From IMG/VR virus record IMGVR_UViG_3300010280_000022: 27,380 nucleotides of DNA. One strand, 5' to 3'. Origin of the DNA: a virus. Lineage: Duplodnaviria > Heunggongvirae > Uroviricota > Caudoviricetes. Below, in pieces: positions 2,920 to 25,231 of this stretch (within the stretch, counting starts at the first letter, position 1; every line of letters starts with the position of its first letter). The notes beneath the pieces were generated by a model. The model saw only the letters and a program-made list of their open reading frames with translations, was not told the origin of the DNA and ran no database searches. The position numbers were made by a program, and so were the translations under genes.

Positions 2920-3010
2920 ATTTACATAGCACTCCTCTTGTGCCATAGTAATCGGGCACTGGCAAAATCCAGTGCCGGGATTGGCGTCCCGGATTACTAA
3001 AAGGCGCATT

Positions 3011-3031
3011 CACCGCGCAAGCGGTTTTTTT
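3011..3031 (+). terminator. Rho-independent terminator between the small LexA-controlled gene and the antirepressor gene
   Basis: Stem ACCGC/GCGGT with GCAA loop followed by six T. Confidence 0.6.
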
Positions 3032-3188
3032 ATGCGTATAGCACGGCCACATTCGTATTATGGTGGGCTGTGTGGGGGCACCGAAAGGTGCGCCGGGTCC
3101 TTTTAGCCGGTTACGCCAACCCTGCACAGTTCACCACCAACCGATTGGCGTCGGTAGTGGTGATTAACCAGACTAAAAGGTAACCACT

Positions 3189-3884
3189 ATGACAGCTACA
3201 AAAAGCACGTCCATTTTTTCTTTCGAATCCCAAGCCGATATACGGGTAATCGTCATTAATGGTGAGCCATGGTTTATCGCTTCAGATGTTTGTCGGGCTA
3301 TAGGCATAGCAAACCATCGAGATGCTGTTCGAAAACTTGATGATGATGAGAAGGGCGTCGCTTCAACCGACACCCCTGGCGGTGAGCAAGAATCGATCAT
3401 CATCTCCGAGTCAGGCCTCTACACACTGATCCTCCGCTGCCGCGATGCGGTGACACCAGGCACTATCCCATACCGCTTTCGTAAATGGGTTACAGGTGAG
3501 GTTCTTCCTCAGATCCGCCGCACCGGAAGTTACATTAAAAACTCGCTCACGCAGGAAGAACGCATAAAGATGGTTGCCGACCAGGTAGCCAACGCCACGG
3601 CGTCAGCAGTGATGCAGGCGATGAAGATAGAGAACAAAACCTACAGTGCCCCACTGAAGCCCGGCTACCGCAGCCTGATTCATTCGCCGTCTGGTGTTCT
3701 CGGCCTGACGGAGAACTCACTGCTGATGAATTTGCTGAACCAGTTACAGGAAGACGGGCACGATGTATCGGGCGCGGCGGCGGAACTGACCACCATGTTC
3801 TGCTACATCGTCGGTGTGAGCAAATGCCTGCGTGATATCCAGACTCACGCGGAGTACATCAACGACAAAGCAGGATTCTTCTGA
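3189..3884 (+). CDS. Bro-N family phage antirepressor (231 aa)
   Basis: N-terminal IRVIVINGEPWFIASDVCRAIGI...LDDDEKGV is the Bro-N/antirepressor signature; AAAAGG upstream of ATG; long structured leader. Confidence 0.8.
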   Translation: MTATKSTSIFSFESQADIRVIVINGEPWFIASDVCRAIGIANHRDAVRKLDDDEKGVASTDTPGGEQESIIISESGLYTLILRCRDAVTPGTIPYRFRKWVTGEVLPQIRRTGSYIKNSLTQEERIKMVADQVANATASAVMQAMKIENKTYSAPLKPGYRSLIHSPSGVLGLTENSLLMNLLNQLQEDGHDVSGAAAELTTMFCYIVGVSKCLRDIQTHAEYINDKAGFF

Positions 3885-3958
3885 CAGAACGGCGGCACAG
3901 GGATGTGCCTTTAAATAATTCTGTACAGATTGCAGACTGGGGGGTGAATAGAGTACTA

Positions 3959-3973
3959 TTACCTTACGGGTGA
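3959..3973 (+). promoter_or_regulatory. Dyad motif site C: TTACC-TTACG-GGTGA
   Basis: Same ATTACCTT left arm as other sites; sits ~40 nt upstream of the mini-ORF and terminator that precede the membrane-protein gene. Confidence 0.4.
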
Positions 3974-4063
3974 TCCATAGCGATTAGGCACCGATACAGG
4001 AGGAGCCCACATGAGAAAATTTGACGAGTACGAAGGCGTTTAACATTCGGATAGTTTAATGAC

Positions 4064-4084
4064 GGGGCCATTAGGCCCCGTTTT
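4064..4084 (+). terminator. Terminator/attenuator hairpin directly upstream of the membrane-protein gene
   Basis: GGGGCC-ATTA-GGCCCC then GTTTT; ends 18 nt before GTG at 4103. Confidence 0.5.
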
Positions 4085-4102
4085 CATGTCTGGAGACAGT
4101 TT

Positions 4103-4642
4103 GTGTTAAGTGAAGAAATGCAATTTGCCATGGCTGTGGCTCAAATCGTAAGTGCAGTCGCGGTTTCGCTTGGCTTGTTCATAGCTATCGCTACTATTAT
4201 TTATAATGTAAATACAGCGAGAAAAGTACACACTTCAGTATTCCTTGGTGAAAGCAGGTTTGATGTAGATTATAAGAAAGGCCTATCTACTATGCGCCGC
4301 ATTCACGAATCGAACAAATCATTCCGCTCTTATATGTATCCAAGCAATGGGCAGGCTGATCTTACGGATGAAGAAAAGATAGAGAAGAGAGAAATAATTT
4401 ACTGTCTAGGTTTCTACGAACGCATGGCTGTGAGCGTGAAGCGGAAAACTTATGATGAGACCATGATTAAGGAAGTATTTTACAGCTCCGTTGTAAATAA
4501 CTATCAGATTGCGCTACCTCTTATACAAGCTATTAGAGAAAAAGAAAACATAAACACATATTTTAAAGAATATGAATGGTTGGCCACACGATGGAAGGAT
4601 TGTCCATTGAAAGATAAATCCCCGTGGTACAAGTTTTGGTAA
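4103..4642 (+). CDS. AT-rich inner-membrane protein (179 aa; one N-terminal TM helix); candidate superinfection-exclusion/defence moron
   Basis: GTG start with GGAG 6 nt upstream (alternative ATG at 4118); hydrophobic segment FAMAVAQIVSAVAVSLGLFIAIATIIY; AT-rich codon usage unlike the flanking structural genes; strong terminator follows. Confidence 0.7.
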   Translation: MLSEEMQFAMAVAQIVSAVAVSLGLFIAIATIIYNVNTARKVHTSVFLGESRFDVDYKKGLSTMRRIHESNKSFRSYMYPSNGQADLTDEEKIEKREIIYCLGFYERMAVSVKRKTYDETMIKEVFYSSVVNNYQIALPLIQAIREKENINTYFKEYEWLATRWKDCPLKDKSPWYKFW

Positions 4643-4663
4643 GCCCGCGACGCGGGCTTTTTT
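4643..4663 (+). terminator. Rho-independent terminator after the membrane-protein gene
   Basis: GCCCGCG..CGCGGGC hairpin immediately after TAA, followed by six T. Confidence 0.7.
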
Positions 4664-4735
4664 GTGGACGAAACAAAAGTCAGTGCTACACTCATTGACG
4701 CCACATTGAGGTGGCTTATAGATGGAAATTTCACA

Positions 4736-4897
4736 ATGAAAAAAGCATTTGCTGCACTGTTCGTTTTGTTGTCTCTGGTAGCTTCAACTCAGGCCTTTGC
4801 CGGTCGTTGTCAGCACGACAGCGATACTGCCGCTGACGGCTCCCGCTGCGGTGGGCGTTCTGCGGATTCCCGCCCGGGCGGCGGTGGCATTCGTTAA
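4736..4897 (+). CDS. Small secreted peptide (53 aa; signal peptide plus ~31-aa Gly/Arg/Asp-rich mature part with 2 Cys)
   Basis: MKKAFAALFVLLSLVASTQAFA is a typical Sec signal with AXA site; upstream TTGACG (4695-4700), 16-bp spacer, TATAGA. ORF-track N-terminal extension from 4664 rejected. Confidence 0.5.
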   Translation: MKKAFAALFVLLSLVASTQAFAGRCQHDSDTAADGSRCGGRSADSRPGGGGIR

Positions 4898-24599: not shown

Positions 24600-25192
24600 T
24601 GATTACCATCCTGACGTTCTTTGAGTCGCTTCCTGGCTGCTGCTATGCGATCAGCAATTGTCACATTCACATTAACATCCAGACGTTCTTTGAACGCGTT
24701 GACATCAACATGCTTACCAATCAGCTCAAGGTTCTTCACCTTGTCAGGCCATTTAATTTTTTTGAGGATTGTCTCTATCGAATCCTCGTTCATGTTCATG
24801 ATGGTCGATGACAGATCAAAGCCACTAAGCGTAGTGCGCCAGATTTTCGGCCACTCACGGATTGGTTTAAGGCTCCCATCGTCGTTGAGGATGTCGATCA
24901 CGTCCATCTGGTCGATCTCCACCAGGCGCATGAGAACGTAATCAGCACTGACGCGCATTCGTTTGTTGCGCTCCTCCATCAACTCGGCAATCCGTTTTTG
25001 AATGCGTTCATCGCGCATCATGACACTGGCTTTAACTGCCGCTGTATTTGGGGAGAATCCTGCGTTAATCGCTGCCTGAGTCTGGTTTTCAGGCGTTTTG
25101 ATGTATGACTGGCAATAAGCCTCCTGCATTGCTGTGAGCGGCTTAAATTGCGTTGATTTGCGTTTATAGGTTTTAGGTTCAGCAGGCATCAT
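24596..25192 (-). CDS. terS: Terminase small subunit (198 aa)
   Basis: ...LELIGKHVDVNAFKE... is a terminase small-subunit type signature; start moved to ATG at 25192 because the first 26 residues of the ORF-track call are a Thr/Ile-rich read-through. Confidence 0.65.
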   Translation of the reverse strand: MMPAEPKTYKRKSTQFKPLTAMQEAYCQSYIKTPENQTQAAINAGFSPNTAAVKASVMMRDERIQKRIAELMEERNKRMRVSADYVLMRLVEIDQMDVIDILNDDGSLKPIREWPKIWRTTLSGFDLSSTIMNMNEDSIETILKKIKWPDKVKNLELIGKHVDVNAFKERLDVNVNVTIADRIAAARKRLKERQDGNQ

Positions 25193-25201
25193 AACCACCG
25201 T

Positions 25202-25231
25202 GGTAATAGTTACCGTTGTGGTAATAGTACC
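25202..25231 (-). repeat. Tandem palindromic repeats GGTAATAGT(T)ACC x2 in the terS leader
   Basis: Copies at 25202-25214 and 25220-25231, 10-40 nt upstream of the terS start. Confidence 0.5.

Follow-up and report, generated by a model that had tools for sequence, protein, structure and literature searches.

The subject of this analysis is a ten-codon open reading frame (ORF), here termed the mini-ORF, and the two-gene arrangement that it opens in a stretch of 27,380 nucleotides (nt) from IMG/VR virus record IMGVR_UViG_3300010280_000022. This whole stretch, hereafter the window, represents a Uetakevirus prophage (epsilon15/phiV10 type) of Escherichia coli. Behind the mini-ORF lie a hairpin and a gene for a membrane protein of family DUF4760, which we examined at 126 related loci. 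An earlier note on the same DNA had read the arrangement as a leader-peptide attenuator or a deliberately throttled gene. Judging from the relatives, the conserved object is the peptide sequence itself, which that note had not recognised. The features on which the argument rests are the following.

3930-3959, plus strand: putative sigma-70 promoter by sequence reading (TTGCAG at 3930-3935, 18-nt spacer, TACTAT at 3954-3959), predicted start at about 3966
3958-3974, plus strand: operator-like palindrome ATTACCTTACGGGTGAT, overlapping the promoter -10 and +1
3998-4005, plus strand: Shine-Dalgarno (SD) sequence AGGAGGAG of the mini-ORF
4011-4043, plus strand: mini-ORF, 10 codons and TAA, MRKFDEYEGV, of a family ending D-E-[FY]-[DE]-G-[FV]-stop
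4061-4069 / 4074-4082, plus strand: hairpin of the intrinsic-terminator type, loop ATTA, with the T-tract TTTT at 4081-4084
4092-4095, plus strand: GGAG, SD of the DUF4760 gene, 7 nt before the GTG at 4103
4103-4642, plus strand: DUF4760 gene, 179 amino acids (aa), GTG start (Pfam PF15956, E = 1.6e-30)
4641-4663, plus strand: terminator ending the operon and conserved right edge of the cargo slot (terminator scan hit)

A micro-gene conserved at the peptide level

The elements that the earlier note had listed for the mini-ORF, i.e., the SD, the ATG at 4011, the peptide MRKFDEYEGV and the TAA ending at 4043, were all found in place on reading the sequence. The SD lies 5 nt from the ATG when counted from its last G, or 7 nt when counted from the end of AGGAGG. 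This ATG is the sole possible start, with an in-frame TAG 10 codons upstream and no other start codon in between. DUF4760 relatives were gathered from viral contigs, one genome per species, metagenomes and exact-protein look-ups, and the mini-ORF was sought less than 330 nt upstream at the 126 loci with enough upstream DNA. An SD-led mini-ORF ending D-E-[FY]-[DE]-G/L/W-[FVLC]-stop was present at 122 of these, whose DUF4760 proteins are between about 40% and 99% identical with that of the window. Many Enterobacterales are among the hosts, including Xenorhabdus, Yersinia, Pantoea, Klebsiella, Enterobacter, Kluyvera and Atlantibacter, and the linked pair sits in different backbones among many prophages of gut bacteria. 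The peptides follow the pattern M-[KRT]-[KR]-x-[FY]-D-E-[FY]-[DE]-G-[FV], and a strong SD (GGAGG, GGGGG or AGGAG) is retained in relatives whose 5' untranslated region (UTR) is otherwise unalignable. The four exceptions comprise one stop-loss lineage (L076 and L163) with the peptide MKKAFDEFDGFYIMK, a leader cut by an insertion (L094) and a locus with an interrupted DUF4760 gene (L127). In the stop-loss lineage, which belongs to Franconibacter/Enterobacter pulveris, TAA has changed to TAC, adding four residues and placing the new stop 8 nt from the hairpin; the insertion in L094 removed the mini-ORF together with the 5' arm of the terminator.

The pattern of substitutions is that of a coding sequence. 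Among 52 distinct sequences aligned on the stop codon, mean entropy over the last six codons came to 0.23, 0.21 and 1.28 bit at codon positions 1, 2 and 3, respectively, and the 17 nt of spacer behind the stop had 1.73 bit. The codons for D, E and D/E are divided about evenly among their synonymous forms, and the stop codon is TAA in 48 of the 52. Between the window and the loci L061/L062, which have 84-85% DUF4760 identity, the 30-nt ORF differs by four synonymous third-position changes and a single R-to-K replacement, while the 5' UTR is unalignable. Because positions 1 and 2 are near-invariant, position 3 is free and the flanks cannot be aligned, selection acts on the peptide and not on an RNA or DNA motif. 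By this comparison the mini-ORF is a real gene under strong selection, and its last six residues are what selection preserves. The earlier note's view of the mini-ORF as real and translated thus gains codon-periodic conservation in its favor, translation being a claim drawn from sequence comparison.

Several alternative identities for the mini-ORF were considered and rejected. It is not the 5' remnant of a longer gene, as the stop and the 13 nt beyond it are common to both types of cargo described below and no longer version was found. A -35-like TTGACG within the ORF was discarded as a hidden promoter, since the D-E codons show synonymous variation and the F gives way to other residues. Rfam searches of 3860-4160, at gathering and at permissive thresholds, identified no RNA family; apart from a weak RsmV-like stem at 3893-3909, the sole hit was to a clustered regularly interspaced short palindromic repeat (CRISPR) on the hairpin behind the mini-ORF, which is attributed to chance. 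The RNA isrJ, considered for its place after the antirepressor gene in Gifsy-1, likewise had no Rfam match.

The leaders share further features around the ORF. All carry a 5' stem-loop ahead of the SD, which would be in keeping with a short RNA that is stable. In many clades (L066, L071, L073, L077, L103, L123, L166, L075) the spacer between stop and terminator contains an anti-SD-like AACCUCU or ACCUUCU, and the ORF is predicted to lie in a loop closed by pairing of this element with the SD of the mini-ORF; the window clade is not among them.

Linkage to DUF4760

The downstream product matches PF15956 with 106.6 bits (cut-off 25) over residues 19-164 and corresponds to phrog_2284, which PHROGs lists as of unknown function. 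In identical E. coli prophages the Prokaryotic Genome Annotation Pipeline (PGAP) calls the same start and a 540-nt coding sequence, and leaves the mini-ORF unannotated in every genome checked. An AlphaFold 2 model (predicted local distance difference test score 88) shows an N-terminal transmembrane helix followed by an all-helical domain; Pfam and PHROGs gave no enzyme or transporter domain.

The mini-ORF and its larger neighbor downstream occur together at the same 122 of 126 loci, in prophage cargo slots, and by sequence the peptide variant tracks the DUF4760 clade. The variants DEYEGV, DEYELV, DEFEGF and DEYDWF occur only beside the matching DUF4760 clade. As a mini-ORF, DEYEGV-stop is confined to its own DUF4760 clade and to a recombinant of the E. 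coli IAI39 type (see below); elsewhere the same string is the end of ordinary proteins. No natural fusion of peptide and DUF4760 was found among the longer homologues, and literature searches on DUF4760 returned nothing relevant.

Free-standing copies of the peptide gene

A back-translated DEFDGF-stop pattern searched in viral contigs matched at least 120 loci. Among the matches listed (at least 120), 96 are ORFs of at most 30 codons, and only 36 lie upstream of DUF4760. The free-standing ORFs typically have 8 codons, as in MYDEFDGF, MKDEFDGF, MLDEFDGF and MNDEFDGF, and some copies duplicate the motif (MKDEFEWCDEFDGF and MLDEFEGFDEFDGF); altogether, related peptide genes of 8-14 residues stand alone in many other phages. 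In lambdoid prophages they sit between the Q antiterminator and the lysis genes, in T4-like Karamvirus phages between a-gt.2 and gene 47; a further position is an epsilon15-type slot next to the terminase gene. Upstream of gene 47, Enterobacter phage PG7 annotates a 21-aa hypothetical protein, YP_009005317.1 (L288:956-1021). Free-standing copies were found among contigs L168-L287 (e.g., L170, L172, L173, L174, L186, L227, L248), and those in large phages adjoin repeated EENWG/EEDWG motifs.

Many of these copies have terminators on both sides and either a convergent gene or none on their 3' side; in several, the hairpin follows only 2-7 nt after the stop. Since they are flanked by terminators and then by a convergent gene or nothing, such copies cannot be leaders of a downstream gene, and a peptide acting in trans is therefore favored. 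The control pattern FGDFED-stop, which has equal information content, gave 19 matches, 15 of which are the C-terminus of one 172-aa protein family; the remaining four are C-termini of longer ORFs (19-140 codons) or lack a start codon, and no SD-led mini-ORF of the DEFDGF kind occurs among the 19. Taken as sequence relationships, the peptide is tightly linked to DUF4760 and diverges with it, and a sister form is free-standing in many phages. A literature search on the peptide strings, of incomplete coverage, found nothing relevant.

A probable fixed terminator instead of a switch

The hairpin behind the mini-ORF has a core of seven GC pairs, CGGGGCC/GGCCCCG at 4063-4069 / 4074-4080, and extends to nine pairs over 4061-4082 through one A-U and one G.U pair. 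Its free energy is -18.4 kcal/mol (z = -5.5), and none of 200 shuffled sequences folds as well. The earlier note had placed a hairpin with a T-tract at 4064-4084. The structure is indeed present, conserved and marked by compensatory changes; as a terminator call it is less secure in the window, where a consensus scan did not score it, T occupying only 4 of the 8 bases after the maximal stem. The T-tract here is a short TTTT (4081-4084), followed by CATGTCT. Among relatives, T makes up 5-8 of the 9 bases that follow the last GC pair in 67 of 69 leaders, and a terminator, typically GAGGCGGGG-loop-CCCCGCCTTTTTT, stands 3' of the mini-ORF in nearly all. Three lineages (L067, L069 and L078) keep the peptide and have no T-tract terminator. 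RNAalifold on 27 diverse leaders found the terminator stem as the sole conserved structure, with GC to AU compensatory changes in two of the five core pairs. In 51 of 70 distinct leaders, 17-18 nt of almost random sequence separate the stop from the base of the stem, and this distance is mostly within 15-19 nt.

As the earlier note had said, 18 nt (4085-4102) separate the T-tract from the GTG at 4103. In relatives, GGA or GGAG occurs 2-5 nt after the T-tract and the DUF4760 start about 8-15 nt further on. An ATGGAT after the T-tract, considered as a second mini-ORF, has a frame that is inconsistent between loci and was read as the SD GGA. The consensus scan detected no promoter-like site within 4044-4102, and none of the approximately 70 distinct leaders has space for a separate DUF4760 promoter. 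DUF4760 must therefore be expressed by read-through, in agreement with what the earlier note had proposed for the membrane protein.

A ribosome-dependent attenuator, by contrast, is not borne out. RNAalifold on the same 27 leaders revealed no conserved antiterminator or alternative helix, and in constrained folding of seven diverse leaders, modelled as free RNA, with the start masked or with the stop masked, the full terminator stayed in the minimum-energy structure in every case. A ribosome covers about 12 nt of mRNA 3' of the A site; by this usual footprint and the measured spacing, a ribosome at the stop would end 5-8 nt short of the stem. The peptides contain no run of regulatory codons. 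A CCUC:GAGG mini-helix, examined as a candidate antiterminator, is too weak by our estimate, never displaced the terminator in the constrained folds and is not found in the window clade. Many phages, moreover, carry this peptide motif with no co-directional gene behind it, which further argues against an attenuator. Because no alternative fold is conserved and the hairpin is predicted wherever the ribosome sits, we regard it as a fixed, leaky terminator, not a switch. It is probably a constitutive, partial terminator between a strongly translated micro-gene and a weakly initiated gene (GTG, GGAG as SD). The note's other option, a deliberately throttled gene, thus fits better, with no promoter room and a need for read-through, provided that termination is partial, as we infer.

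Putative promoter and operator

Upstream of the mini-ORF, the earlier note had overlooked a candidate promoter carrying an operator (3930-3974), to which sequence reading and palindrome counts both point. The promoter at 3930-3959 scores 7/12, under the scan threshold, and is kept in phages with different cargo at the slot; its -10 reads TAATAT or TAAAAT in diverged relatives, with A2 and T6 retained. The palindrome ATTACC-N5-GGTAAT, allowing at most two mismatches, occurs at eight sites in the window (2524, 2904, 3958, 6926, 21672, 22289, 25191, 25209) against 0.72 expected. Two of these sites form a tandem pair at 25191-25225, and others precede isrK/C4-ant and the mini-ORF operon or lie around the tRNA gene; together they look like a scattered-operator regulon similar to that of P1 C1. 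The epsilon15 record lists this motif as a repressor binding site, and it is present upstream of 36 of 70 distinct DUF4760 leaders. Because the palindrome overlaps the promoter, recurs in the window and equals the annotated repressor site of epsilon15, the mini-ORF/DUF4760 operon is probably under prophage-repressor control, promoter and operator being putative assignments.

The cargo slot and its neighborhood

The operon occupies an exchangeable position in the prophage, the interval 3885-4735, whose promoter and terminator boundaries are fixed. Its neighbors are as follows.

2956-3031: isrK (Rfam match), upstream of the mini-ORF
3056-3141: C4 antisense RNA (Rfam match), upstream of the mini-ORF
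3189-3884: Bro-N antirepressor gene (ant)
4736-4897: conserved gene for a 53-aa membrane-associated protein (phrog_14503)

The slot thus lies between ant and the 53-aa protein gene. The left flank (to about 3965) and the right terminator, AGCCCGC..GCGGGCTTTTTT, are common to phages with quite different slot genes, and the terminator sequence at 4641-4663 recurs 3' of different cargo genes in TL-2011b, phiv142-3 and IAI39. As cargo, TL-2011b carries the gene of a YafO-family toxin behind a small gene, phiv142-3 carries two small ORFs, and E. coli IAI39 has the gene of a 211-aa protein (phrog_1349).

Prophages of the IAI39 type retain the mini-ORF, with the hairpin and DUF4760 swapped for another gene, and account for 11 of 52 E. 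coli genomes with the mini-ORF. The recombination junction lies at 4056/4057, directly 5' of another TTACC-N5-GGTAA, and cargo exchange appears to take place at operator-like palindromes. By this comparison, mini-ORF and hairpin are separable by recombination, a point that the earlier note had missed. The mini-ORF was never found beside relatives of the IAI39 211-aa gene, for which reason the arrangement is best read as a recent recombinant; a role of the mini-ORF as general leader for any cargo was rejected on the same observation.

Other features of this neighborhood stand apart from the operon. The isrK and C4 matches (77.9 and 77.7 bits) lie directly 5' of the Bro-N antirepressor gene, and the block at 2956-3884 constitutes an anti-immunity module like P1 immI and Gifsy-1 isrK-anrP in a Uetakevirus prophage. 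A hairpin, CGGCACAGGGATGTGCC, at 3893-3909 begins 9 nt 3' of the ant stop and is kept in all phages sharing this flank; followed by TTTAAATAATT, it may also serve the ant operon as its weak terminator. The loop with its flanks, CACAGGGAUGUG, is very similar to what we take to be the consensus of high-affinity CsrA/RsmA GGA hairpins from in vitro selection (SELEX), and Rfam gives a partial, weak match to the RsmV stem (E = 0.069). In the second, terminase-side cargo slot of epsilon15-type phages, a gene starts about 13 nt after an annotated rho-independent terminator (epsilon15, L289:1603-1640); in some relatives (L172, L267) the occupant is an 8-codon MKDEFDGF or MEDEFDGF ORF instead of epsilon15 p50. 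A terminator followed by a gene may be a general cargo-slot design in this phage group.

A model and its alternatives

We propose that the mini-ORF is a trans-acting micro-peptide gene, that a fixed leaky terminator sets a high ratio of peptide to DUF4760 message, and that DUF4760 is expressed by operator-controlled read-through; the evidence leaves this proposal evenly balanced between right and wrong. The two genes would form a small operon carried as swappable cargo by the epsilon15/phiV10-like prophage. A promoter overlapping the phage-repressor operator (3930-3974) would start RNA near 3966, the consensus SD would drive efficient translation of the 10-residue MRKFDEYEGV, and the leaky intrinsic terminator 18 nt after the stop would end most transcripts, yielding a short RNA of about 120 nt with hairpins at its 5' and 3' ends. 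A minority of polymerases would read through into DUF4760, which starts with GTG behind a weak SD and lacks a promoter. The terminator would then act as a fixed ratio-setter that provides much peptide message and little DUF4760 message, by a logic as in mccA-mccB or toxI-toxN. Most likely, the trans-acting peptide would be a partner, regulator or antidote of DUF4760, and the free-standing copies in other phages would act on the same target. We infer partial termination, action in trans and any functional link between peptide and DUF4760. The near-obligate linkage, the clade-matched variants and the toxin-antitoxin cargo at the same slot in TL-2011b suggest a functional pairing with DUF4760, as antidote or regulator.

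A bolder version of this proposal, which we offer as speculation and think unlikely, casts the 8-12-residue DE[FY][DE]G[FV] peptide as a short-lived trans antidote or regulator of DUF4760, itself a membrane-anchored effector. The two would form a peptide-based pair of the toxin-antitoxin or abortive-infection-like type with internal-terminator dosage and repressor-gated expression, and the free-standing DEFDGF micro-genes of lambdoid, epsilon15-like and T4-like phages would be counter-measures or mimics acting on the same target.

Four observations weigh against a trans-acting peptide with a ratio-setting terminator. A free cytoplasmic peptide of 10 residues would be unusually small for a stable trans-acting factor. 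The SD:anti-SD pairing predicted in many clades would limit repeated translation, which fits poorly with an abundant peptide. The tight distance from stop to hairpin is not needed by a pure ratio-setter and hints at a geometry between ribosome and terminator. Finally, PADLOC reported 0 families for DUF4760, and no known defence or toxin model matched.

The second and third of these points lead to a rather doubtful but serious rival, a cis-acting arrest peptide. Here the nascent ...DE[FY][DE]G[FV] would stall the ribosome at or near the stop, constitutively or on a signal, and the parked ribosome would alter terminator efficiency, message stability or DUF4760 initiation, so that the mini-ORF matters as a regulator and not for its product. 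Leaders of the TnaC, SpeFL and MsrDL type stall at termination and are conserved up to the stop, and here, too, most of the conservation falls on the last six residues, immediately ahead of a UAA stop that is strongly preferred. The 17-18 nt between stop and hairpin are kept despite a free spacer sequence, the SD:anti-SD pairing suggests essentially co-transcriptional, single-round translation, and several free-standing copies place the hairpin 2-7 nt after the stop, where a terminating ribosome would melt it. The ribosome as a universal target would also explain one motif in very different phages. Yet no antiterminator or alternative fold is conserved, a ribosome at the stop, with its footprint of about 12 nt, would fall short of the stem, and the constrained folds keep the hairpin. 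L067, L069 and L078 retain the peptide in front of no T-tract terminator, many free-standing copies have no co-directional gene downstream on which a stalled ribosome could act, and the variants co-vary with the DUF4760 clade and not with any ribosomal feature.

If the peptide acts in trans, it need not act on DUF4760. Mini-ORF and hairpin could be an autonomous peptide gene with an unrelated function, e.g., on a host protein, and DUF4760 a passenger that uses the leaky terminator as a weak expression signal. The free-standing units of mini-ORF and hairpin in lambdoid late leaders, the terminase-side epsilon15-type slot and T4-like phages speak for such autonomy, as does the mini-ORF that IAI39-type prophages retained when hairpin and DUF4760 were replaced. 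A mere passenger, however, would hardly be expected at 122 of 126 loci across 40-99% DUF4760 identity and differing prophage backbones, nor would DEYEGV, DEYELV, DEFEGF and DEYDWF be confined to the matching DUF4760 clade; the IAI39 case, moreover, is a recent recombinant, and relatives of its replacement gene never carry the mini-ORF. We consider this explanation improbable. Hardly credible is a chance ORF with a fortuitous SD and ATG in front of a leftover terminator that ends the ant operon or came with the DUF4760 cassette. Short ORFs with SD-like purine runs are common, the T-tract of the window is short and the scan made no terminator call, but the codon-periodic conservation and the presence at 122 of 126 loci already refute it. 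The equal-information control yields no comparable SD-led mini-ORF, and ant has its own hairpin at 3893-3909, 150 nt upstream. It is the conservation, not the motif itself, that excludes chance.

Relation to known systems and significance

The closest architectural parallel to the proposed trans-acting peptide gene is the mcc operon, where a 7-codon ORF is followed by an intrinsic terminator and two RNAs result, a short one that is abundant and ribosome-bound and a long one that is minor (Zukher et al. 2014, PMC4231749). Both loci have a very short SD-led ORF (7 codons there, 10 here), an intergenic terminator and one or more promoterless downstream genes (PMC4231749). They differ in that MccA is the substrate of the downstream enzymes, whereas DUF4760 has no enzyme domain, and in that upstream RNA attenuates the mcc terminator until a ribosome binds (PMC4231749), whereas no such competing fold is predicted here. 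The likeness is one of sequence architecture.

In ToxIN-type (type III) operons, which reside on mobile elements, a small upstream antidote is followed by an internal terminator that sets a high antidote-to-toxin ratio and by a larger effector gene. The present locus has the same order of small gene, terminator and larger gene, and TL-2011b has a YafO-family toxin module at this slot. The ToxIN antidote is a repeated RNA; its counterpart here would be a peptide of 10 residues, and no PADLOC or toxin-antitoxin model matched. The trpL, hisL, pheL and pyrL attenuators also place a short translated ORF upstream of an intrinsic terminator and a structural gene; here, unlike in those leaders, neither a cognate codon run nor a conserved antiterminator is present, and 17-18 nt lie between the end of the ORF and the stem. 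With TnaC, SpeFL and MsrDL the mini-ORF shares a short reading frame whose amino-acid sequence is conserved up to the stop codon, but the stop-to-stem geometry would keep a stalled ribosome off the hairpin, and the motif also occurs where no gene to be regulated lies downstream. A typical short docking motif consists of acidic residues and, at the C-terminus, an aromatic residue whose carboxylate is free. In this respect the peptide end presumably recalls the tail of single-stranded DNA-binding protein, DDDIPF, which we take as a lead only: the match of DEFDGF is loose, and the penultimate Pro and the Ile are missing in the peptide.

The architecture of short ORF, terminator and promoterless gene is thus already known. 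What appears to be undescribed is the family of peptides, along with its link to DUF4760 and its occurrence as free-standing genes. Annotation does not see genes of 8-12 codons, and the locus offers unusually clean evidence of peptide-level selection on a gene of at most 10 codons, which is co-inherited with a family of unknown function across Enterobacterales and also stands alone in phages of unrelated types. A peptide that acts on the ribosome would represent a new arrest motif. If the peptide works with or against DUF4760, it would provide the first functional handle on this family and define a new minimal two-component phage cargo, and the product of the mini-ORF would be among the smallest conserved phage gene products.

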